Shown here piece after piece: positions 284 to 63,299 of a stretch of 64,000 bases of DNA. The stretch is from Escherichia coli. Lineage in GTDB: Bacteria; Pseudomonadota; Gammaproteobacteria; Enterobacterales; Enterobacteriaceae. Under the pieces are notes generated by a model. It ran no database searches. It was given only the letters and a program-made list of their open reading frames with translations, and was not told the origin of the DNA. The position numbers were made by a program, and so were the translations under genes. The stretch lies in the NCBI GenBank assembly GCA_005400705.1, contig GCA_005400705.1_4079.1; one strand, 5' to 3'. Position 1 is the stretch's first letter, and every line of letters starts with the position of its first letter.

Positions 284-637
284 ATGCTAATTTATTTGAG
301 TGTTCTTGTTATTTCATTACTGGTATCATTAGCAGTACTGAAAGCTGTTGCCATCGGTCGTAGTAAAATTGACAGTACTGAAACGAGTTCCGTTCTAGAT
401 TTGATTATGGATCATCCTAAAGTCTGTGGTATTATTGTATTGTTTGTTATTCTGATTAATACGTATATTGTCAGGGATCATTTATATAATATGTATGATT
501 GTAGTGTTAGATCTATATCACAAGGTGTTGAAACTGACTATAGCTGGTACTATGAGAAATGTAGATTTAAAAATCAGCATGGTATTTGGGTTGATTTTGA
601 CAAACTACGTGGAACTCCTTCAGGAGAAGAAGAATAA
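284..637 (+). CDS. small membrane protein (hypothetical)
   Basis: ORF with SD GGAG upstream; hydrophobic N-terminal segment MLIYLSVLVISLLVSLAVL. Confidence 0.5.
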   Translation: MLIYLSVLVISLLVSLAVLKAVAIGRSKIDSTETSSVLDLIMDHPKVCGIIVLFVILINTYIVRDHLYNMYDCSVRSISQGVETDYSWYYEKCRFKNQHGIWVDFDKLRGTPSGEEE

Positions 638-639
638 TT

Positions 640-1131
640 ATGTTTGAGTTCCCAGAAGAGTCATTTGACTTTATTGACCCTACTGATGATGGATACCGAC
701 ACATTAACATTTATAGTAAAGCTAGAACTAAGTTAGGTAGAGATCTATCTAACTTTTCTTCGCATAGCTTCACACTTGAACCATATGGTTGGTTCCCTTC
801 AGTTGAAACATTTTACTTTTGGTTTTTAACTGGGCAAAAACATGATGACCTTAGAAAAGTATCTGGTGCAGCAGCAAAAGCAGCCGCTAACAAATATATG
901 CATGATCGAATTGAAATGACGGATGATTGTATTTCTATTATTCAAGATGCTATTTGTGCTAAGATAATTCAAAATCCAGAGTTAGCCGAAAGATTAAGAA
1001 AAAGCAAGTTACCTTTTTACCATTACTATGTATATGGTGGTAAAGTTGTAGATGTATCCGACGAACATGATTGGTTTGTTAAAACATTCGAATATATAAG
1101 AACGGTGTTAAAGGAAAACTATAATGGGTAA
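640..1131 (+). CDS. NADAR/YbiA-like (DUF1768) protein, putative ADP-ribose-processing hydrolase
   Basis: Segment FSNFSSHSFTLEPYGWFPSVETFYFW resembles the YbiA/NADAR core (FSNF...W..SEHYFQ); ATGA overlap with upstream ORF. Confidence 0.5.
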   Translation: MFEFPEESFDFIDPTDDGYRHINIYSKARTKLGRDLSNFSSHSFTLEPYGWFPSVETFYFWFLTGQKHDDLRKVSGAAAKAAANKYMHDRIEMTDDCISIIQDAICAKIIQNPELAERLRKSKLPFYHYYVYGGKVVDVSDEHDWFVKTFEYIRTVLKENYNG

Positions 1132-1402
1132 ATGTTGGGTATGCTTCAAGGTGTTTGATGAAGAATATGAAATAATATTAGATGTATTGCCACAGCAGTA
1201 CATGGTGTGTAATGAAAAATACAAATTGGACACCTACCCGACCCCCAAGTACATGGGAATATGTCCTTTGTGTGATGCAAATGGCGTGTCCAATAGTGAG
1301 ATTTCATTCACTAACCAAGCCACAACTAACTGTGTATCTGGGTATATAAGAGAGAATCGAGAATATTTTATTAGGAGATTATATGAACGACAAAATCTTT
1401 GA
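1124..1402 (+). CDS. hypothetical Cys-rich small protein
   Basis: ORF overlapping upstream stop; CxxC...CxxC pattern suggests a zinc ribbon. Confidence 0.4.
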   Translation: MGKCWVCFKVFDEEYEIILDVLPQQYMVCNEKYKLDTYPTPKYMGICPLCDANGVSNSEISFTNQATTNCVSGYIRENREYFIRRLYERQNL

Positions 1403-1613
1403 TACATATGACATCGATACTTTACTAACACCATCTGATAACAGTACTGTTAAAATGGACATGTACTGGATTGTCGTTGATAAAAAAGTATTTAGACATA
1501 AAATTACTAAAGTTTGGCAATGTAATAAAAACAAATCTATTGTTGAAGGATTGGCACAATGCATTCCTAATGCAGAGGTTTTATTTTTACCATATGCATA
1601 TACAAAGGAATAA
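1383..1613 (+). CDS. hypothetical protein
   Basis: ORF with SD GGAG; translationally coupled to neighbours. Confidence 0.4.
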   Translation: MNDKIFDTYDIDTLLTPSDNSTVKMDMYWIVVDKKVFRHKITKVWQCNKNKSIVEGLAQCIPNAEVLFLPYAYTKE

Positions 1614-1614
1614 A

Positions 1615-1776
1615 ATGAAAAAAACTTGGAAAATATTCACAATACCTGCTATAATGTTGTTATTGGCACTTTTCACACCGCAGAGTCATGTATTGTCTCT
1701 TAACATTGTGGAAATAATTCTTCTTGTAATTCACTGTGTCGTGTGTTATAATTATGTAAAAGGTGATAAAGAATGA
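1615..1776 (+). CDS. small membrane protein (hypothetical)
   Basis: Internal ATG of track ORF 1471-1776 preceded by AAGGA; hydrophobic MKKTWKIFTIPAIMLLLALF. Confidence 0.45.
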   Translation: MKKTWKIFTIPAIMLLLALFTPQSHVLSLNIVEIILLVIHCVVCYNYVKGDKE

Positions 1777-2195
1777 AGTTCTTTAAAATTCGAATTGGTG
1801 TAAGTTCTGGTTTATCTCATTGGGTATTTTATGATTTACCTGATAGTTATACTATTGATGATGTAATTGATTTATATACCGAAGATCAACAATGGGTGTT
1901 AGATACCGAAACACATAGAATTGATTGTCAAGAGATTAGTGAAGAAGATTACAAGCACGGAAAGCAAGCCATGAAGTATTTTGAAACAAATATCAAAATG
2001 CTGTCTGAAAACGTATTTCCTGTAAAAGAATGGGCAATTTTACTTGCTAATCCTAAAAAACCTGTTAGAATTGGTTATCCAAATTTTCATATGGTGTATC
2101 GTATGAATGATAAGCGAGAGCTTAACTATCAATACGATTACGATTCATCTAAGTTTGGAGTTCTTAAACAATTTTTAAAGGCTTATCCAGTATGA
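1773..2195 (+). CDS. hypothetical protein
   Basis: ORF, SD AAAGGTGA, ATGA overlap with upstream gene. Confidence 0.5.
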   Translation: MKFFKIRIGVSSGLSHWVFYDLPDSYTIDDVIDLYTEDQQWVLDTETHRIDCQEISEEDYKHGKQAMKYFETNIKMLSENVFPVKEWAILLANPKKPVRIGYPNFHMVYRMNDKRELNYQYDYDSSKFGVLKQFLKAYPV

Positions 2196-2527
2196 GTGAA
2201 GATAGTAAAGAGTATATTTTACGTTGTTCTTGTGGTGATAAAATGGAGCATTGCGTTCACATTGCACAATTTGACTTGACAGAGGAATATGGAGATGATA
2301 AACTTGGTCAATGTCTGATAAGTATGCGTTTAAATCCTTTTTTAAAATGGTATAACCGTGTATGGGTTGCAGTAAAGTATGTTTTTGGTGTAAACGACTA
2401 TCAATATGTAGAAGCAACAATTGATGTTGACATTCTAAAAGAAGTTGTGTTACAATTAGAAGATACTAGAACTGATGAGGTTAAAAAAGAACAAAGAGAA
2501 AAACGTACTGATGTGAAGGTTTTATGA
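2192..2527 (+). CDS. hypothetical protein
   Basis: ORF overlapping neighbours by 4 nt. Confidence 0.45.
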   Translation: MSEDSKEYILRCSCGDKMEHCVHIAQFDLTEEYGDDKLGQCLISMRLNPFLKWYNRVWVAVKYVFGVNDYQYVEATIDVDILKEVVLQLEDTRTDEVKKEQREKRTDVKVL

Positions 2528-2718
2528 GTACTGAACTTTATGAAAAAAAGTACTGTACAAATTGCTCAACTGAGTATACAATACAAGGTATGTTGATTTG
2601 TACAATATGTCAGTCAAAGAAATCAGCAACTTTCATCGTTGATGATAGATTTGGTGATTTGAAACAGTTTAAAGCAAACCGCAATCTTCGTATTTTTAGC
2701 AATCTAAATAAGGAATAA
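2524..2718 (+). CDS. hypothetical zinc-ribbon protein
   Basis: CTNC...CTIC pairs of cysteines in a 64 aa ORF. Confidence 0.45.
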   Translation: MSTELYEKKYCTNCSTEYTIQGMLICTICQSKKSATFIVDDRFGDLKQFKANRNLRIFSNLNKE

Positions 2719-2721
2719 TAT

Positions 2722-3150
2722 ATGAATATCGAACAAACTATCCGTGAACATTCTTTCTTCGCTCCAGAAACTGGTCGTGTTATTGAGAGCGTCAAAATCG
2801 AAGAACTAATGGTCAATGTTAAATACAAAGAACCAAATGATGAGATTAGCAGTACTTTTTGTGCTCTACGTGCACCATTCCGTAATGAAAAAGCTAAGAA
2901 ACCAGCATATGTTCTTGCCATTGCACTGGGTTGTGTTGTAAAACTTGCAGTTGATGAAAATCTTCTGAATATTAAAGTTGCACCAAGCAATGACGATGAA
3001 AACATTGATTTGAACTTTGATGGTTCTCTTGATGAAGATGTATTTTTCCAACAGTCACTTGTTTACGACTTCCGTACAGTGACACATTCTCACATCAAGT
3101 TCATTAATGAAATGGTTGAGATTGTTGCTGAATACGAAGAATCTCTCTAA
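2722..3150 (+). CDS. hypothetical protein, EExFFQxS-motif paralog family
   Basis: SD AAGGA; C-terminal region LDEDVFFQQSLVYDF. Confidence 0.6.
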   Translation: MNIEQTIREHSFFAPETGRVIESVKIEELMVNVKYKEPNDEISSTFCALRAPFRNEKAKKPAYVLAIALGCVVKLAVDENLLNIKVAPSNDDENIDLNFDGSLDEDVFFQQSLVYDFRTVTHSHIKFINEMVEIVAEYEESL

Positions 3151-3162
3151 GTAAATACAAAA

Positions 3163-3184
3163 GCCTCCATCATGGAGGCTTTTA
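3163..3184 (+). terminator. intrinsic terminator
   Basis: GCCTCCAT-CAT-GGAGGC hairpin followed by TTTTAT. Confidence 0.6.
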
Positions 3185-3203
3185 TCACATAAGGAAATGA
3201 AAT

Positions 3204-7106: not shown

Positions 7107-8987
7107 ATGAAACCTATCCGAGTACTATCTCTTTTTAATGGAATGAGTGTAGGATACATGGCATTAAAAGATGCTGGTATCCCTGTTGAAAAATATTATT
7201 CATCCGAAATTGACAAATTTGCTATAGCTGAATCCCAAGCTAACTTCCCCGATATAATCCAATTGGGTGATGTAACTAGATGGAGAGAATGGGATATTGA
7301 ATGGGATAAGATAGATCTACTGATGGGTGGTTTTCCATGCTTCCCAGCAGGAACTATGATAATGACAAATAAAGGTCATAAAGATATAAAAGATATAAAA
7401 ATTGGTGATATGGTTCTTACACACACTGGACAGTACCAAAAAGTATTGAGTACTGGTGTTAAAAAGGCTCCCACTCGTATTATTACAGGTCAAGGTCACC
7501 TTCCAATTGAGTGTACCGATAATCATCCATTTTGGAGTAGGGAACGTCTAGCCAATAAATGGAATAATCAACGCCGAAGATATGATTCTGTGTTTTCTGA
7601 ACCGCAATGGGTAAATGCTATAGATCTTACTAAACAAAGTTATATTTGTAATGTTAAAAATATTACACATAATACAGTAAGTGATAAAGATGAAAAATAT
7701 TGGTATTTTGTTGGTCGTTTTATGGGTGATGGATGTGCTAGTGTATCTAATAACAAATACAGTATTACTATTGTAGATTCATTAGATAAAGTTGATGAAT
7801 TGAAAAAATGTTTTGATGATTTTGGATACAAATACACATTAGCTATTAAAGATAATCATGTAAGATGTGATATATATAGCAAAAAGCTTTATGATGAATT
7901 AATATGTATTGGGCATAAATCACAAAACAAATGTTTACCACCTGAAATATTCAATGAAACTATCAATAACAAAGAAGCATTTATTAAAGGATACATGGAT
8001 GCAGATGGTTGTGAGGATAAACACAATAAAAAATACAAATTTACCACCACAAGTTATAAAATAGTTCTTGGTATGCAACAGTTAATCTTAGATACTTATC
8101 AACGTCATTGTACTATTAGTCAAACTGTTCCAAAAACAAAAAAATATATAAAAAATAAGTTGGTTAATCAGCTTCCGTATTGGAATGTTCATTTTAGCTA
8201 TAATAAAATTAAAAGAGATGATGTAATATATGATGAAATTTATATATGGAATCGTGGTGTAAAAAGTAATGTACCAACCGGAGAATGGAAAACCGTTTAC
8301 AATATTGAAGTTGCAGTAGATAACACATATACGGCGAACAATATTGTAGTTCATAACTGCCAAGCGTGGTCAGTTGCAGGTAAACAGGGTGGAATAAATG
8401 ATCCTCGTGGTATGTTATTCCATACAATGGTTGATATTTACCAGCACATAAAAAGTCTCAATCCAGACTTGAAAGTACTGTTCGAGAATGTTAAAATGAA
8501 AGAAGATTTCAAGCAATACATTAATAGTGTTCTTGAGATGACACCAGTACTGATAAATTCCCAGCATTATACGCCTCACTTCAGGCAGAGATATTACTGG
8601 TACAGTACTGATAAACTTTTTATACCACCTGCATTATCAAATGCACCTAAACTTCAAGATATTATTGAAGATGGTTGGTACACTGACAGAACCGCTTCGT
8701 ACTGTATAGATGCTAACTATTTTAAGGGTGGTGATTGTAACCAGTACTTTAATAAATCAAGAAGACAAATTGTTTTCAAAGAACCTGATATCGATAGGGA
8801 TTTCCTTATTGAACATGGTAAGCGAAATGTGGACTATCGTCATTTAACAGTACAAGAGTGTTGCATGTTGCAAGGAATTGATGTAAACTACTTCAAAGTT
8901 AGTAGTTCAACACAAGCATACAAAATGCTTGGGAATGGATGGACTATGCCAGTTATATCACACTTACTACGAGATATATTCTTTTGA
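7107..8987 (+). CDS. DNA (cytosine-5)-methyltransferase, intein-containing precursor
   Basis: C5-MTase motif I FNGMSVG, split motif IV GGFP / CQAWSVAG, motif VI ENV (VLFENVKM); a 340 aa insertion lies between them. Confidence 0.8.
   Translation: MKPIRVLSLFNGMSVGYMALKDAGIPVEKYYSSEIDKFAIAESQANFPDIIQLGDVTRWREWDIEWDKIDLLMGGFPCFPAGTMIMTNKGHKDIKDIKIGDMVLTHTGQYQKVLSTGVKKAPTRIITGQGHLPIECTDNHPFWSRERLANKWNNQRRRYDSVFSEPQWVNAIDLTKQSYICNVKNITHNTVSDKDEKYWYFVGRFMGDGCASVSNNKYSITIVDSLDKVDELKKCFDDFGYKYTLAIKDNHVRCDIYSKKLYDELICIGHKSQNKCLPPEIFNETINNKEAFIKGYMDADGCEDKHNKKYKFTTTSYKIVLGMQQLILDTYQRHCTISQTVPKTKKYIKNKLVNQLPYWNVHFSYNKIKRDDVIYDEIYIWNRGVKSNVPTGEWKTVYNIEVAVDNTYTANNIVVHNCQAWSVAGKQGGINDPRGMLFHTMVDIYQHIKSLNPDLKVLFENVKMKEDFKQYINSVLEMTPVLINSQHYTPHFRQRYYWYSTDKLFIPPALSNAPKLQDIIEDGWYTDRTASYCIDANYFKGGDCNQYFNKSRRQIVFKEPDIDRDFLIEHGKRNVDYRHLTVQECCMLQGIDVNYFKVSSSTQAYKMLGNGWTMPVISHLLRDIFF
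7338..8357 (+). other. intein with LAGLIDADG homing-endonuclease domain, inside the methyltransferase gene
   Basis: Begins with Cys (CFPAGT...), ends ...VVHN followed by Cys; two LAGLIDADG-type motifs (YFVGRFMGDGCAS, FIKGYMDADGCED); the +1 residue is the PCQ catalytic Cys. Confidence 0.75.
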
Positions 8988-9511: not shown

Positions 9512-10027
9512 ATGCCAATTCCTTATGTTAAAATTATTAATAATATTCTCGATTCATGGGAAGATGTTATTACTGGTAAAAAGCAACCATCACCAGTACA
9601 TGCTTTATCTGGGAAACTTCAATTCAGAATGTCAAACCAAACTGAAACATTTAATAATCATGATATTTGCATTACATTAAAAACACCTATCAGTATTGTA
9701 ATTAAAAAAAATAAAGATGATGAATTGACATTATCTATTGGTCGTGATAAAATCATTTTAAGTAATTTGTCTGAAGAAGAATTCTTTCAAAGAAGTACTA
9801 TTATCGATATGAAAGATTTCACATATGAATCATTGGTTGAACTCAATACACGTTTTAACGATATTCAGGAACGATTGCGACCAATTCTTCGTATCGAAGA
9901 AGAAGCCTGGATTGAAAGTATTAGGAAGATGCAAGAAATGTTGAAAGAAAATATTAACAATCTGGGTAAAGCTACAATGGAATTTGGTAAAACTTTTAAA
10001 CTGAACTTTTCAAAGGATCGTAAATGA
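9512..10027 (+). CDS. hypothetical protein, EExFFQxS-motif paralog family
   Basis: ATG after the terminator (track ORF starts 9485); motif SEEEFFQRSTIIDM. Confidence 0.55.
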   Translation: MPIPYVKIINNILDSWEDVITGKKQPSPVHALSGKLQFRMSNQTETFNNHDICITLKTPISIVIKKNKDDELTLSIGRDKIILSNLSEEEFFQRSTIIDMKDFTYESLVELNTRFNDIQERLRPILRIEEEAWIESIRKMQEMLKENINNLGKATMEFGKTFKLNFSKDRK

Positions 10028-10479
10028 AAATTGATAATTTGATTCATGTTTTAGGATCTTTACATAAAATATTATCACATCTACATGAGATAAAGAAACT
10101 GGGATTTAACATCTCAAATTCAATTGAAACTACATTTAAATATCAATCAATTACTGGTGATGGTTATTACATAATCGAATATACTTATGAAACCGATCCA
10201 GACTTCTATCCTCTTACGTTGAGAATTTATCCAACAAATCCGAGAGGAATTCACGACATATCATCAATTTCACTTGATCCAGATGGTGAAACGAGTATTG
10301 AATACAATAATGATTCAAAACCAGAATTTTACATTGATGATATTAAAATGATGTTCAACGATGAATATGTGTTCCAGCAAAGTACTGTGCATGATGTTGG
10401 AAGTACTAATGGACAATTTTGGAATACATGTTATTATCATATGATTGAAATTTGTAAATTACTAAAAGGCGATGATTAA
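10024..10479 (+). CDS. hypothetical protein, EExFFQxS-motif paralog family
   Basis: SD AAGGA; motif NDEYVFQQSTVHDVG. Confidence 0.6.
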   Translation: MKIDNLIHVLGSLHKILSHLHEIKKLGFNISNSIETTFKYQSITGDGYYIIEYTYETDPDFYPLTLRIYPTNPRGIHDISSISLDPDGETSIEYNNDSKPEFYIDDIKMMFNDEYVFQQSTVHDVGSTNGQFWNTCYYHMIEICKLLKGDD

Positions 10480-34744: not shown

Positions 34745-35710
34745 GTGAAAAAGCTTGATTTAAATACAATTGCCGAAGAAGTTCTGGATGAATGTTTTGC
34801 TAATGAAGAAGTCAACACACTAGAAGCCTTAGATTTCGTTGAAGATAAAGATGAAAATGAAGGTAAAGTACAAAGCAGTTTCAAATATAATATTACACTT
34901 AAGCGACCACCAAATGTTTCCAATGAAGATCTAATTCGTGATATTCAAGCTGGTATCAATGTAAAGAAAAACACTGAACTGTTAGTTCGTTACAATTATG
35001 GACTGATTATTGATGTAGCAAGTAAATGTACTTGTTATATCCCATTTGAAGATAAGATTTCATATGGTGTTGAGGGGTTCATGAGAGCACTAAAAACCTT
35101 TGATCTTAATAAGAATGTGAAGTTCATTACCTATGCTTCTTCTAGTATTTACATGACAGTTTATAACGAAAGTTCTGACGCTAACTATATGGTACACTTC
35201 CCACGTTATATGAGTGTTCATAAGATCAAAGTAAAAAGATTCTGCCAGGAATATATGCGTAAACATGGTGTTCGCCCAACTCCTGAAATAATCTCAGAGG
35301 GTACTGGGATTGAGATTCAGCATGTTAATAATTGTTTGTTATTTCAAAGCGAATACACTTCACTGGATGCACCATTAGACGGTGTTACAGATGGTACACT
35401 AGGTGACATTATTCATTCACCTGCTTCTGATTTTAACCTCAATGTTGATAGTATTCGTGCACCTTTACGTTATGCTATCAATGAACTGACTAACGAATTG
35501 AGTACTAAAGAACGTGAGATTATCCAGCGTGTTCATGGTCTAGGTGAATATGAACCTGAAACGCTTCGTGAGATTGCTGATAATGGTTTTGTTGATGATA
35601 ATGGAAAATATGTTAAATCCCGTTCATCAATACACCGAAAGTACAGTGAAGCTATGCAAAAGCTTAAGAAGCTAGTACTTGCAAAAGGGTACGAATACGA
35701 AGATTTCTAA
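34745..35710 (+). CDS. sigma70-family RNA polymerase sigma factor
   Basis: GTG start after AGGAG; region 2 (EGFMRALKTFDLNKNVKFITYASSSIYMTV) and region 4 helix-turn-helix (LSTKEREIIQRVHGL...ETLREIAD...KSRSSIHRKYSEAMQKLKK). Confidence 0.75.
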   Translation: MKKLDLNTIAEEVLDECFANEEVNTLEALDFVEDKDENEGKVQSSFKYNITLKRPPNVSNEDLIRDIQAGINVKKNTELLVRYNYGLIIDVASKCTCYIPFEDKISYGVEGFMRALKTFDLNKNVKFITYASSSIYMTVYNESSDANYMVHFPRYMSVHKIKVKRFCQEYMRKHGVRPTPEIISEGTGIEIQHVNNCLLFQSEYTSLDAPLDGVTDGTLGDIIHSPASDFNLNVDSIRAPLRYAINELTNELSTKEREIIQRVHGLGEYEPETLREIADNGFVDDNGKYVKSRSSIHRKYSEAMQKLKKLVLAKGYEYEDF

Positions 35711-59678: not shown

Positions 59679-60869
59679 TTACAATTGTCTAGGTGTATCC
59701 AGTACATATCTATTTGTACGAGGACCACCATCATCATCAGTTCCGGTTGAATATATATTTTTCATATCAGCAGTTAGGAAAGTACGATACGAACCGCGAT
59801 ATATTTTTATTTTATCATACATAGAATATGTTATTTCTGACGGCAATGGACATGCAGTAAATTTACCAATGGTAACATCAGAACCAACACCCAATGTGCC
59901 AGCATAACTACTCGCATTTAAACCAGTTGCATATACACCTGCACTCGTAACTAGTATACTAGATTGTGTTGGGTATCCAGTATGAATTGAATACAAAGTA
60001 CCGGGTGGTAAGGTTGTACTATTGTTTCCTAAAACTCCATTAACAGTGCTAGATGTAGTTTTATTTCCCCATGCTCCATTATTAGCTAATCCACCAACTA
60101 GAAACTGACGTGCTCCTGTATTTGGATTCTCCACTAAAGCACTGACTGAACCCATTGAGCATACAGTGTATTGTAACGTTTTTGTGTATGTTGTACTTGG
60201 CTGATATAAAGTATATTCATTATATAAAGTCCATGTAGTGCTGGAACTTATACCGGATGTACCACCACCAATATATAAATTATTTTGTGTATCAAAAAAC
60301 ATTGCACAGCTATTTGTTGACATTATTTGTGCAATATCAACATCTGGTGTTACAGCTTTAACAAATGAACCATCGGTTATTTGTTGAGTTTTTCCAGTAC
60401 CATCAGCGAATTGTTTAGCCCCACTCCAACCAGTACTCCATATTGTATTATTATCCATTAAGAAAGTAAACCACGTAGTACCTGCATACATCTGTTTAAT
60501 TGAAGTACTTGAACTTTGTGTGAACAAATTTTCAATATATTGGTTATAACTTAAAAATGATGTAGTACTAGTTTCTAAACCAATATGACTACCATATCCA
60601 CAATAAAAATAATTTAAGTCATTATCTTGTACTAACAAAGTTCCTTCTGACATCCAACAATCGTTAACGTTTTCTCTAATTAATGTCCATGTTCTTAATG
60701 CAGTGTTGTTTCCTCTCCCAAACTTCCCAAAACTATTATTGCCTCGTGCGTATAGTTGACCATCAGTATAAAGTACAACAACATCACTATTGATTGGTAT
60801 TATTTTCTTAATTTGAAGAGGCTCAGGTGTAATATTTCCATAATCAAACATTCTAACAAAAGGTAACAT
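59679..60869 (-). CDS. RCC1-like repeat protein with conserved MLPFVRMFDYGNI N-terminus
   Basis: Start set to the ATG after AAGGAGGAAAT (track ORF extends 22 codons further into the upstream repeat); repeated G-x-N-x-x-G-x-x-G motifs (YARGNNSFGKFGRGN, YATGLNASSYAGTLGVG). Confidence 0.6.
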   Translation of the reverse strand: MLPFVRMFDYGNITPEPLQIKKIIPINSDVVVLYTDGQLYARGNNSFGKFGRGNNTALRTWTLIRENVNDCWMSEGTLLVQDNDLNYFYCGYGSHIGLETSTTSFLSYNQYIENLFTQSSSTSIKQMYAGTTWFTFLMDNNTIWSTGWSGAKQFADGTGKTQQITDGSFVKAVTPDVDIAQIMSTNSCAMFFDTQNNLYIGGGTSGISSSTTWTLYNEYTLYQPSTTYTKTLQYTVCSMGSVSALVENPNTGARQFLVGGLANNGAWGNKTTSSTVNGVLGNNSTTLPPGTLYSIHTGYPTQSSILVTSAGVYATGLNASSYAGTLGVGSDVTIGKFTACPLPSEITYSMYDKIKIYRGSYRTFLTADMKNIYSTGTDDDGGPRTNRYVLDTPRQL

Positions 60870-60939
60870 ATTTCCTCCTTTATTCATTATACTATATTTA
60901 ATACAAAAAGAAATGCCAGTATCAAGTACTGGCATAATA

Positions 60940-62118
60940 TTATCGGTTAAATTTAAAATCTGTTATGTGTGTCCATGTATGATTTAATGGTGTACTCATT
61001 GGTGTAAAGCCAGCAGGGTCTGACAAAGCTGTACCACGTGCGTACATAAATTGATTGCCAGTACAATCCATTATAGCATAAGAACGTGTTGCTGTGCCAC
61101 ATTTGAACCCAACTGCACTACTTGGGGTCGGTAATACTTCAAATGTAGGTGCATTTGAACTACCACCCCCATCTTTTGTTCCAGCTATGTACAGAACTCC
61201 ATTAGTATCAATGATTAAGTTAGTCCAATATGCTTGTTCTCGACCAGCATAAAAATATGTTAAATCACCGGGTACAAATGGTAACGTTCCTTTATATATT
61301 GTGGTATTAACATTCACTGGTGCACCAGCTACACCCCATGAACTCATATAGTTTCTCCCACTTGCGTAGAATGTAGTTCCTTTACCGTAAAGTATTAATG
61401 TTGCTTGACTTGTTCGCATTGCATTATATTCAAACTCAGGATCATCAGTAGCGTCCTTAAAAATCTGTGTCCATGTTGTTATATTGCCAGTAGTTGTAAC
61501 ACCCATTTGATAATAATAATTATCACCAGTAGCATAGAATTCTTTAGGGCCAGTTTGTACAATTGCATTCCCATTAGTTAACCAAAAATCTAATGTATTA
61601 GTCTTGATCTTGGTTGGTGTGTAATTCGCCACGGTATTTCCTTTTCCGAAATAACCATTAGCGTTATTTCCATGACCCCATAAATCACCATTAGTTGTGC
61701 GTAGGAATAATGTACCAGTATTGAATCCAACTTTTTCTATAGTACTTATGTCAATACCAACAGCAGTGTACTTCGTTGTAAAATCTTGAAAAGTACTCCA
61801 ATAATTTGATGAACCATTAAACATGGTTTGTCTGCCAGTGTACTTCACTTTATTATCGTTAGTGATAAGTAATGTCCCCCACACTGACGCGAACATTAAC
61901 TTAACATTTTCCATAACAAAGTATGGCTTACCGTATGCTGACGCGGTAGTGTTTAAACCTAATAGTTGTCCATCATTACTACAACCCCATACTTCGCCGT
62001 TATCCAAAAGCATCAACATAGTAGGTTTGCCAGATGATACATCCAAAAAGAAATCTTTTGGTGTTGGTACACCAGGTGTGATATTCCCATAATCAAACAA
62101 TCTTACAAAAGGTAACAT
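60940..62118 (-). CDS. RCC1-like repeat protein with conserved MLPFVRLFDYGNI N-terminus
   Basis: AAGGAGGGAAAT-ATG; motifs WGHGNNANGYFGKGN, YATGDNYYYQMGV. Confidence 0.6.
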   Translation of the reverse strand: MLPFVRLFDYGNITPGVPTPKDFFLDVSSGKPTMLMLLDNGEVWGCSNDGQLLGLNTTASAYGKPYFVMENVKLMFASVWGTLLITNDNKVKYTGRQTMFNGSSNYWSTFQDFTTKYTAVGIDISTIEKVGFNTGTLFLRTTNGDLWGHGNNANGYFGKGNTVANYTPTKIKTNTLDFWLTNGNAIVQTGPKEFYATGDNYYYQMGVTTTGNITTWTQIFKDATDDPEFEYNAMRTSQATLILYGKGTTFYASGRNYMSSWGVAGAPVNVNTTIYKGTLPFVPGDLTYFYAGREQAYWTNLIIDTNGVLYIAGTKDGGGSSNAPTFEVLPTPSSAVGFKCGTATRSYAIMDCTGNQFMYARGTALSDPAGFTPMSTPLNHTWTHITDFKFNR

Positions 62119-62189
62119 ATTTCCCTCCTTTATTCATTATACTATATTTAATACAAATAAGAATGCCAGTATCAAGTACTGGCATTATG

Positions 62190-63299
62190 TTATTTTGGTA
62201 AATCAATTTTAGTAAAGACTGCAACATCTTCACTTGCTCCTGGTATTGCGTAATAAGAACCAGTACTATACACATCTCCATTTTTGGTTAATATCGATGT
62301 CAAACCATCACTAAAAAGAACATCCCTAATCTCACTAACTTCAACTGGTAATTGTAAATTGGTAGCACTATATATAGCACCAGTTTGAGAATTGTTTAAT
62401 CCCAAACCACGGTTCGCCCCAACACCCTTCTGATATGTACTAGTAATTACCATTTGTGTAGCAGTATTTAAGGCAGGTGAATTCGTCATAAACAACGGAG
62501 AACTATTAGGCAAAGTACTTACAGGAACGGCACGGAATGTAGTCGTACCTGAACTAAGAAAGTTTGGAGTTTGACCACATACGAAATATGATGTACCATT
62601 ATAGTAATTGAATGCATTACCACCAATGGCTGCATCGATTACACCAGAACTACGCAATCCCCAAGTGTTAATTTGTGTTTGGTTCCCCGTACCATGCTGT
62701 CCACTACTATTCCATCCAGAACTATATAGCTTATTATCTAATGTAAGATACATACTATCATTCGCATTGGTCATTACTTTACGAACGTTCGTAGCACATT
62801 GAGTTAATGTGTAAATTGATGAGGAACCAATACCCAAAGAACCACGATATCCATTATCTCCTGCACCATAGAGTACTGAATTAGTGCTAAGTACAAATAT
62901 TAAACCATTTGTACATACAATATTAGCAATTTCACTTACTGGTATAGCATTGGTAAACCAATTAGTCCTTTCAACTAATACAGTACTGTAAGAAGTAGTT
63001 GTAGAAGATGAGAACCAGTACGTTTGACCTGATGTCCATATCGTATTATCATTTTTAATAATAACAAGTGTACGATCACCCACGAAAAAATTAGAAACAT
63101 CTGTACTTACTAATATCCATGAAGATACCGTGTTGGTATTACCATTTCCAGATTCACCACCTTGATTTCTACCTATGTAATATAAATCATGTGAATCAGT
63201 CAATAAGAATTGACCTTGTGTAGAAGCACCAACTTTAATTATATTTTTAGGACCAGGTACAATATTTCCGTACTTAACCATTCTTGCAAAAGGTAACAT
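62190..63299 (-). CDS. RCC1-like repeat protein with conserved MLPFARMVKYGNI N-terminus
   Basis: AAGGAGAGAATT-ATG; motifs YYIGRNQGGESGNGN, YGAGDNGYRGSLGIG, YSSGWNSSGQHGTGN. Confidence 0.6.
   Translation of the reverse strand: MLPFARMVKYGNIVPGPKNIIKVGASTQGQFLLTDSHDLYYIGRNQGGESGNGNTNTVSSWILVSTDVSNFFVGDRTLVIIKNDNTIWTSGQTYWFSSSTTTSYSTVLVERTNWFTNAIPVSEIANIVCTNGLIFVLSTNSVLYGAGDNGYRGSLGIGSSSIYTLTQCATNVRKVMTNANDSMYLTLDNKLYSSGWNSSGQHGTGNQTQINTWGLRSSGVIDAAIGGNAFNYYNGTSYFVCGQTPNFLSSGTTTFRAVPVSTLPNSSPLFMTNSPALNTATQMVITSTYQKGVGANRGLGLNNSQTGAIYSATNLQLPVEVSEIRDVLFSDGLTSILTKNGDVYSTGSYYAIPGASEDVAVFTKIDLPK

Follow-up and report, generated by a model that had tools for sequence, protein, structure and literature searches.

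The gene and its operon

The window, i.e. the whole 64-kb stretch of DNA analysed here, is 99% identical to the PBECO4/121Q-type jumbo phages of E. coli and Salmonella (genus Asteriusvirus, ~350 kb), and 129 of its 142 ORFs lie on the + strand. The gene under study encodes a protein of 163 aa within a terminator-closed operon (Table 1). The preceding ORF stops at position 637 and the following one starts at 1124, in the same direction and with an overlap of 8 nt. No Pfam domain was found in the 10 nearest genes around it, and a promoter scan returned 19 sites against 17.6 expected, which is uninformative.

Table 1. Coordinates of the gene, its operon, the conserved motifs of the encoded protein and ADP-ribose-related genes of a complete Asteriusvirus genome. 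Positions are those of the window unless an accession is given; fractions are conservation among 175 family members.
Feature	Position	Strand	Basis or remark
CDS, 163 aa, single-domain NADAR-fold protein (PHROG 652 / 11222 family)	640..1131	+	ATG-to-TAA ORF
Operon of tightly packed co-directional small ORFs	284..3150 (array including terminator 284..3185)	+	ORF list
Terminator-like stem-loop hairpin closing the operon	3157-3185	+	counterpart annotated as terminator in phage G17
N-terminal motif D17-G18-x-x-H21-I-N23-I-Y25-S26-K27	688..720	+	first beta-strand region, family-specific
L36-S37-N38-F39, "LSNF" superfamily motif	745..756	+	L36 168/175, N38 172/175, F39 166/175
E56, equivalent of the distal-ribose-binding Glu	805..807	+	invariant (175/175); aligned to NADARs
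L63, non-basic, where NADARs have the essential diphosphate-binding Lys	826..828	+	aligned with K43 (AdfN) and K55 (YbiA)
G76-x-x-A79-K80-x-x-A83-N84, NADAR "G..AK..GR" helix	865..891	+	G76 175/175, K80 173/175
H128-Y129-Y130, start of the last beta-hairpin	1021..1029	+	H128 173/175, Y129 170/175, Y130 170/175
C-terminal helix with W145 and R154	1072..1101	+	W145 172/175, R154 153/175
Stand-alone divergent Macro domain	OR844650.1 195765-196268	-	fused to the family domain in other phages
Stand-alone DUF4326	OR844650.1 221296-221628	-	E 6e-24
Calcineurin-like phosphoesterase	OR844650.1 240551-241363	-	fused to the family domain in other phages

The 163-aa ORF is a real gene under purifying selection. 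The copy carried by PBECO4 is 100% identical, 23 of 24 close relatives have the gene intact with all 492 nt, and the comparison with phage 121Q gives 22 nucleotide differences of which 20 are synonymous (dN/dS = 0.021). In phage G17 (MK327931.1, where 9639-10129 corresponds to 640-1131 of the window) a deletion of 1 nt in an A-run, which changes AACAAATAT into AACAATAT, leaves the gene annotated as two ORFs; the gene upstream is also annotated as frameshifted in that record. Pseudogenisation, which the split annotation might suggest, was rejected: the deletion is unique to the G17 record among the 24 relatives, and it is likely a sequencing error or a strain-specific loss. The encoded protein is acidic (pI 5.66, net charge -5), and strongly so at its N-terminus (MFEFPEESFDFIDPTDD).

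Other genes of the window have recognisable products. The 626-aa ORF at 7107-8987 (+) encodes a C5-cytosine DNA methyltransferase, matched by PF00145 in three stretches (E 8e-29), into which an intein is inserted, with Hint and Intein_splicing domains and a LAGLIDADG homing endonuclease; this intein is absent from phage G17, since the G17 orthologue has only ~287 aa. A 321-aa phage-encoded protein of the sigma-70 family, with regions 2, 3 and 4, is found at 34745-35710 (+). At least two, and probably three, tandem genes with RCC1-like repeats (beta-propeller) occupy 59679-63299 (-); two of them were scanned and both matched RCC1-like models.

Assignment to the NADAR superfamily

Taken alone, the 163-aa sequence matches nothing in Pfam (including PF08719 and PF08010), NCBIfam or the PDB, even at E<=10, and in the PHROG collection it matches two families only, 652 (E 6e-45) and 11222 (E 4e-31), both of unknown function. 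These null results reflect the low sensitivity of single-sequence searches and not missing homology. A profile built from 27 homologues and run with hmmsearch against all PDB sequences gave exactly two matches, the NADAR of 8BAU (PnNADAR, E 1.1e-4) and YbiA of E. coli (2B3W, E 4.8e-4). The Pfam models themselves stay below their thresholds for the family: PF08719 (NADAR/DUF1768) gave sub-threshold matches in 5 of the 27 relatives, with a best E of 0.024, and for PF08010 the best family member reached 20.4 bits (gathering score 36), with a best E of 4.4e-6.

Structure prediction and profile-profile comparison point the same way. The AlphaFold2 model obtained from the 27-homologue alignment is confident (pLDDT 90.7, pTM 0.84), and Foldseek places the three solved NADAR structures on top of the PDB matches (probability 1.0, 1.0 and 0.99), followed by noise. 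In a fold search of BFVD, members of the protein's own family come first and then dozens of viral proteins described as "NADAR domain-containing". With hhalign, an alignment of 77 family members matches the alignment of T4 gp30.3/AdfN (PF08010) at 97.5% (E 5.6e-12, 144 columns) and that of YbiA-type NADARs at 94.9% (E 4.2e-8, 138 columns), essentially over the full length in both cases. Thus the PDB profile search, the AlphaFold2 model, Foldseek, BFVD and hhalign together make the assignment to the NADAR fold and superfamily secure. The closest characterised relatives of the protein are the "phage NADARs", and the clade of PHROG 652 and 11222 is large, phage-specific and sister to the T4 gp30.3/AdfN family.

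The earlier note had proposed a resemblance to the YbiA/NADAR core from a short peptide, and the profile and structure tests bear it out far beyond chance. The peptide corresponds to residues 36-61 (nt 745-822), with 25 of its 26 residues right, its first residue being L and not F (as encoded, LSNFSSHSFTLEPYGWFPSVETFYFW, starting LSNFSS...). The same note took the absence of a significant profile match to NADAR/DUF1768 as the outcome that would refute it; for the single sequence against Pfam this is literally what was found, and the more sensitive tests, i.e. the family profile and the profile-profile comparison, overturn it. That the motif is a chance match on an unrelated fold, as the empty single-sequence searches of Pfam, NCBIfam and the PDB up to E<=10 could have led one to think, is excluded by the PDB profile search, Foldseek, BFVD and the alignments to both AdfN and YbiA. 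PADLOC gave no match for the 163-aa protein, but neither did it for the positive control T4 AdfN, so that this result is uninformative. Canonical YbiA of E. coli does have a PADLOC match, to the candidate-defence model PDC-M42C (E 3.5e-15).

Conserved residues and the putative active site

In characterised NADARs, a Glu (E43 of PnNADAR, E88 of E. coli C7, E36 of AdfN) and an acidic residue of the last strand hold the distal ribose, and the diphosphate is held by a Lys (K50, K95 and K43 respectively) together with R79, W89, R93 and W133 (PMC11543638, PMC11125620, PMC12945103, PMC11825919). On the last strand, YbiA/NADAR has a Glu, DarG1 an Asp and the phage gp30.3 NADARs a His (PMC11543638, PMC11125620). 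Mutation of the Lys severely impairs these enzymes, K95 being essential in E. coli C7 and K43 important in T4 AdfN (PMC11543638, PMC11825919). We compared these positions with the family, residue conservation being counted over 175 members (Table 1).

The elements expected on the ribose side are present. E56 is the counterpart of E43 in PnNADAR, E48 in YbiA, E36 in T4 AdfN and E88 in E. coli C7 NADAR. H128 aligns with H123 of AdfN, i.e. with the "phage NADAR" His that replaces the catalytic Glu/Asp; relative to YbiA, Y127-H128 face E125-H126 with a register uncertain by one residue, and Y129-Y130 align with Y132-W133. The LSNF motif is common to YbiA (FSNF), PnNADAR (LSNF) and AdfN (LSNF), and the C-terminal helix has R154 where AdfN has R149 and YbiA R153. 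In the N-terminal motif (D17 169/175, G18 174/175, H21 169/175, N23 175/175, S26 171/175), I-N-x-Y-S aligns with "INFYS" of YbiA, and D17, G18 and H21 have no canonical NADAR counterpart. The invariants that the family has beyond canonical NADARs are D17, G18, H21, N23, the aromatic helix E-G-Y-W-Y-W, Y129, Y130 and W145.

The diphosphate side is different. L63 occupies the position of the Lys found seven residues after the Glu (K50 in PnNADAR, K55 in YbiA, K43 in AdfN, K95 in E. coli C7), a residue that hardly varies in the AdfN alignment. Family members mostly have S (43), L (40) or G (40) there, with K in 14; the position is K or R in 15 of the 175 members and non-basic in the other 160. 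A basic residue is found at positions 66-68 (K67 here; +10 to +12 from the Glu), 3-5 positions past the lost Lys, in 130 of the 175, and could be a substitute. A83-N84 aligns with G78-R79 of YbiA: the G-R pair is A-N in the clade of the 163-aa protein, and in the wider family position 83 is G in 163/175 and position 84 is R (84) or K (43), i.e. basic in 127/175. R90-I91 aligns with D88-W89 of YbiA, and a W is found at position 91 in only 47/175.

These alignments indicate that the ribose side of the pocket is kept and that its ADP (diphosphate) side is re-modelled. With the Lys changed to Leu and the Arg and Trp contacts lost, substrate recognition must differ in detail from that of every characterised NADAR, and this combination of a kept and a re-modelled side places the protein in a distinct clade and not as a plain member of PF08010 or PF08719. 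In the active-site comparison that the earlier note called for, the ribose-binding Glu and the last-strand His are there, the diphosphate-binding Lys is not.

Distribution of the family

An exhaustive HMM search gave 2,089 clusters at 50% identity, 1,651 of them at E<=1e-10, and tblastn located the domain in 506-671 phage records. Its carriers include Asteriusvirus, jumbo phages of the K64-1/GAP32/BF type, Ackermannviridae (CBA120 orf012) and the chimalliviruses of Agricanvirus, as well as many phages of Vibrio, Klebsiella and Erwinia, and others of Serratia, Pseudomonas and Ralstonia. Most members are stand-alone single domains. The protein is annotated "hypothetical" in almost every record, across more than 500 phage genomes that include therapeutic-candidate Kuttervirus and jumbo phages; one Staphylococcus phage carries the annotation "DUF1768 family protein", and the gene goes unmentioned in the 2025 genome paper on Asteriusvirus Sharanji.

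A motif-based scan of IMG/VR found 261 loci, and a similar scan of one genome for each of 185,579 bacterial and archaeal species found only 21, whose flanks look derived from phages or megaplasmids. Three of these 21 (L090, L097 and L104) lie on Pseudomonas replicons of ~0.95-1.06 Mb labelled "plasmid", which is unusual for a phage-restricted gene. Some uncultivated large phages of IMG/VR (L019, L021, L022/L023 and L061) have two family members within ~1 kb, several of them fused to extra domains, which suggests sub-functionalisation of the paired copies.

Within Asteriusvirus the 163-aa gene is the sole NADAR-fold gene: the 64-kb window contains no paralog and no canonical NADAR, and the complete genome OR844650.1 gave no AdfN-type or YbiA-type NADAR at E<=1.

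Gene neighbourhoods and domain fusions

The neighbourhood census of viral loci (148 non-redundant flanking proteins at 77 loci) brought out no neighbour that recurs; proteins of the Macro, SIR2, T4-type RNA ligase, Metallophos and RNR types are only sporadic. In the bacterial census (117 proteins at 18 loci) the only recurrent partner is DUF488-N3a. No ADP-ribosyltransferase is adjacent to a family member at any of the ~100 viral and bacterial loci. Because of this lack of a recurrent partner, gene context identifies neither the substrate nor a cognate toxin.

Fusions are more telling. Among 73 multidomain family members the partners are DUF4326 (25), SLOG of the YAcAr type (18), Macro (6) and DUF488-N3a (6), with single cases of Metallophos, an exoribonuclease and a canonical NADAR. 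This set corresponds to the NAD+/ADP-ribose processing network of Iyer, Burroughs, Aravind and colleagues (PMC9503650, PMC7824862), in which the SLOG, DUF4326 and DUF488 partners are predicted to act on soluble ADPr derivatives and not on DNA (PMC9503650). The fusion to a canonical NADAR is P0096, a polyprotein-like metagenomic protein of 1,415 aa in which the YbiA-type domain spans residues 6-151 and the divergent one 548-702; the presence of both types in one protein suggests distinct specificities.

Macro genes are also found next to the family. In Agricanvirus chimalliviruses a Macro (AdfM) gene is immediately upstream of the family member, and in the Erwinia chimallivirus Ea35-70 a 293-aa fusion of the domain to SLOG is directly downstream of a Macro gene. 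Chimallivirus Macro proteins are AdfM, a DNA de-ADP-ribosylase that defeats DarTG2 (PMC13309987). In OR844650.1 the Macro, DUF4326 and phosphoesterase genes of Table 1 stand apart, although other phages have these very modules fused to the NADAR-like domain.

At 437-1063 of phage G17, ~8.6 kb upstream of the start of the window, lies a gene whose annotation gives a conserved domain like that of T4 gp30.2 (PHA02597) and names it a phosphoglycolate phosphatase. Gene 30.2 of T4 lies directly beside 30.3 (adfN), and the G17 gene may be a remnant of a shared ancestry of the module.

Comparison with known systems

T4 gp30.3, i.e. AdfN (PF08010), has a proven anti-DarTG1 activity (PMC11825919). Like the 163-aa protein it is a stand-alone phage NADAR-fold protein of ~150 aa encoded among small early or accessory genes, and both have LSNF, the Glu (E36/E56), the G..AK..G helix, the His (H123/H128) and the C-terminal Arg. 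The disparities are K43, replaced by Leu in a protein that scores below the PF08010 threshold; the helix after the Glu, which reads E-G-Y-W-Y-W against E-G-F-L-Q-x-x-K in AdfN; the extra, invariant D-G-x-x-H motif at the N-terminus and the Y-Y-V-Y-G-G-K-V hairpin; and a pI of 5.7 against a median of 9.4 for the DNA-acting AdfN family. AdfN-Bas32 and AdfN-Bas60 (T5-like phages and Vequintavirinae) are, like the 163-aa protein, NADAR-fold proteins of non-T4 phages, and are proposed or shown to be anti-DarTG1 factors. CDD-based DELTA-BLAST picks them up, and they group with canonical NADARs of archaea and bacteria (PMC11825919), whereas the family described here is invisible to the Pfam NADAR models.

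Canonical NADAR/YbiA (PF08719; 2B3W, 8BAU) has ~17% identity to the 163-aa protein. Besides Lys55, replaced by Leu, the clade has lost G78-R79 and D88-W89; E125 gives way to the His-type arrangement, and the D130-x-x-W-G-D-G-G loop to a beta-hairpin. The family is restricted to phages, unlike canonical NADAR/YbiA, and the riboflavin genes expected for a YbiA-type N-glycosidase are absent near the 163-aa gene and the family loci. The DarG1 antitoxin NADAR (BC4488 family; 8BAT) differs in several respects: no DarT1 or other ART is adjacent to the 163-aa gene; DarG1 has a basic N-terminal extension that forms a ssDNA-binding groove, whereas the N-terminus is acidic here; its last-strand Asp is a His; and the equivalents of Lys95 and Lys115 are not conserved. 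AdfM, the phage Macro protein directed against DarTG2, has an analogous role in that it strips ADP-ribose from DNA, but the Macro fold is unrelated to NADAR and the linkage is thymine N3-ADPr.

Possible functions

We infer for the 163-aa protein a catalytic activity, a substrate and an anti-defence role by analogy with AdfN: it may be an ADP-ribosyl N-glycohydrolase used in counter-defence, with N2-ADP-ribosyl-guanine made on phage DNA by DarT1-like toxins as leading candidate substrate. We hold this reading, the most probable of those considered, tentatively, with somewhat less than an even chance of being right. [quoted passage not shown] DarT1-type guanine ADP-ribosylation is the leading candidate because of the AdfN analogy and since guanine-ADPr is an in vitro substrate of all four recognised NADAR families. 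Several points argue against guanine-ADPr. The Lys is lost (L63) and, on the alignments, so are the equivalents of R79 and W89 in the clade; the protein is acidic, against the median pI of 9.4 in the AdfN family, and has no basic N-terminal extension of the DarG1 kind; no ADP-ribosyltransferase toxin is adjacent in ~100 loci; and the SLOG, DUF4326 and DUF488 partners are predicted for soluble ADPr derivatives (PMC9503650).

Two other readings are less probable but deserve attention. In the main rival, with the same fold and chemistry, the protein could degrade a soluble molecule derived from NAD+ or ADP-ribose, such as a cADPR-type immune signal of TIR/Thoeris-like systems or toxic ADPr phosphates, acting jointly with phage Macro, DUF4326 (phosphatase-like), SLOG and Metallophos proteins; a cyclic or otherwise altered ADP moiety would then account for the re-modelled pocket on the diphosphate side. 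The dominance of DUF4326, YAcAr-SLOG, Macro and DUF488-N3a among the fusions and the stand-alone DUF4326, Macro and phosphoesterase genes elsewhere in the Asteriusvirus genome are consistent with this, as are the loss of the canonical diphosphate contacts, the acidity of a protein that displays no obvious DNA-binding surface, and the pairing in P0096 of two NADAR types suggestive of distinct specificities. The characterised NADARs nevertheless all act on base-linked ADPr or riboflavin intermediates (PMC11125620, PMC12945103), Macro partners can be DNA de-ADP-ribosylases (AdfM, PMC13309987), and no TIR- or Thoeris-related context was found. The second reading, about as probable as the first, is that of a fifth, phage-specific NADAR family whose pocket would be rebuilt for a substrate beyond those of all characterised NADARs, either a cyclic or modified ADP-ribose immune signal or an undescribed ribosyl or ADP-ribosyl modification of nucleic acids by host defence; it would carry out one step of a phage "ADPr-demolition" pathway built from modules, its partners being the Macro, SLOG and phosphatase-like DUF4326/DUF488 domains.

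Two further explanations appear improbable. The protein could be a catalytically weak or inactive NADAR-fold binder of ADPr or nucleotides, serving as sponge, sensor, or targeting or specificity module for partner enzymes: up to three or four residues relevant to catalysis through diphosphate contacts are missing (PMC11543638), and the domain is often one module beside bona fide catalytic domains. This fits poorly with E56 and H128, the residues nearest the scissile bond, which are essentially invariant in 175 divergent members along with ~18 other positions, with the dN/dS of 0.021, with the basic residue 3-5 positions past the lost Lys that could substitute for it in 130/175, and with the stand-alone, single-domain state of most members. 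Slightly less probable still is a housekeeping N-glycosidase of phage nucleotide, RNA-repair or metabolite-damage pathways with no part in anti-defence, either for a YbiA-like clean-up of ribosylamine intermediates or for processing by-products of NAD-dependent tRNA repair. YbiA belongs to this type of enzyme (RefSeq "N-glycosidase YbiA"; PMC11543638), and ribonucleotide reductase, thymidylate synthase, thymidine kinase, 5-hmdU DNA kinase, T4-type RNA ligase, RlaP and Thg1 are sporadic neighbours of the family. But each of them is found at only 1-2 of the ~100 loci, the last-strand residue is the phage-type His and not the Glu of YbiA, riboflavin-pathway context is lacking, and a phage-restricted, patchy distribution fits an accessory gene.

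Significance

Phage NADARs and their anti-DarTG1 role are already known: they were shown to be counter-defence enzymes only in 2024-2025, and the canonical, Lys-containing versions alone were tested. What is new is the delineation of a large, Pfam-invisible and Lys-less sister group of gp30.3/AdfN, and the recognition of one of its members as the only NADAR-fold gene of Asteriusvirus. If the clade still removes guanine-ADPr, the reach of anti-DarT counter-defence would be wider, and the "essential" Lys dispensable; if it does not, this would point to a new substrate and perhaps to a host defence chemistry that is also new. In both cases a function that can be put to a direct test is assigned to a widespread part of phage dark matter, and a new profile model for annotating it is warranted.
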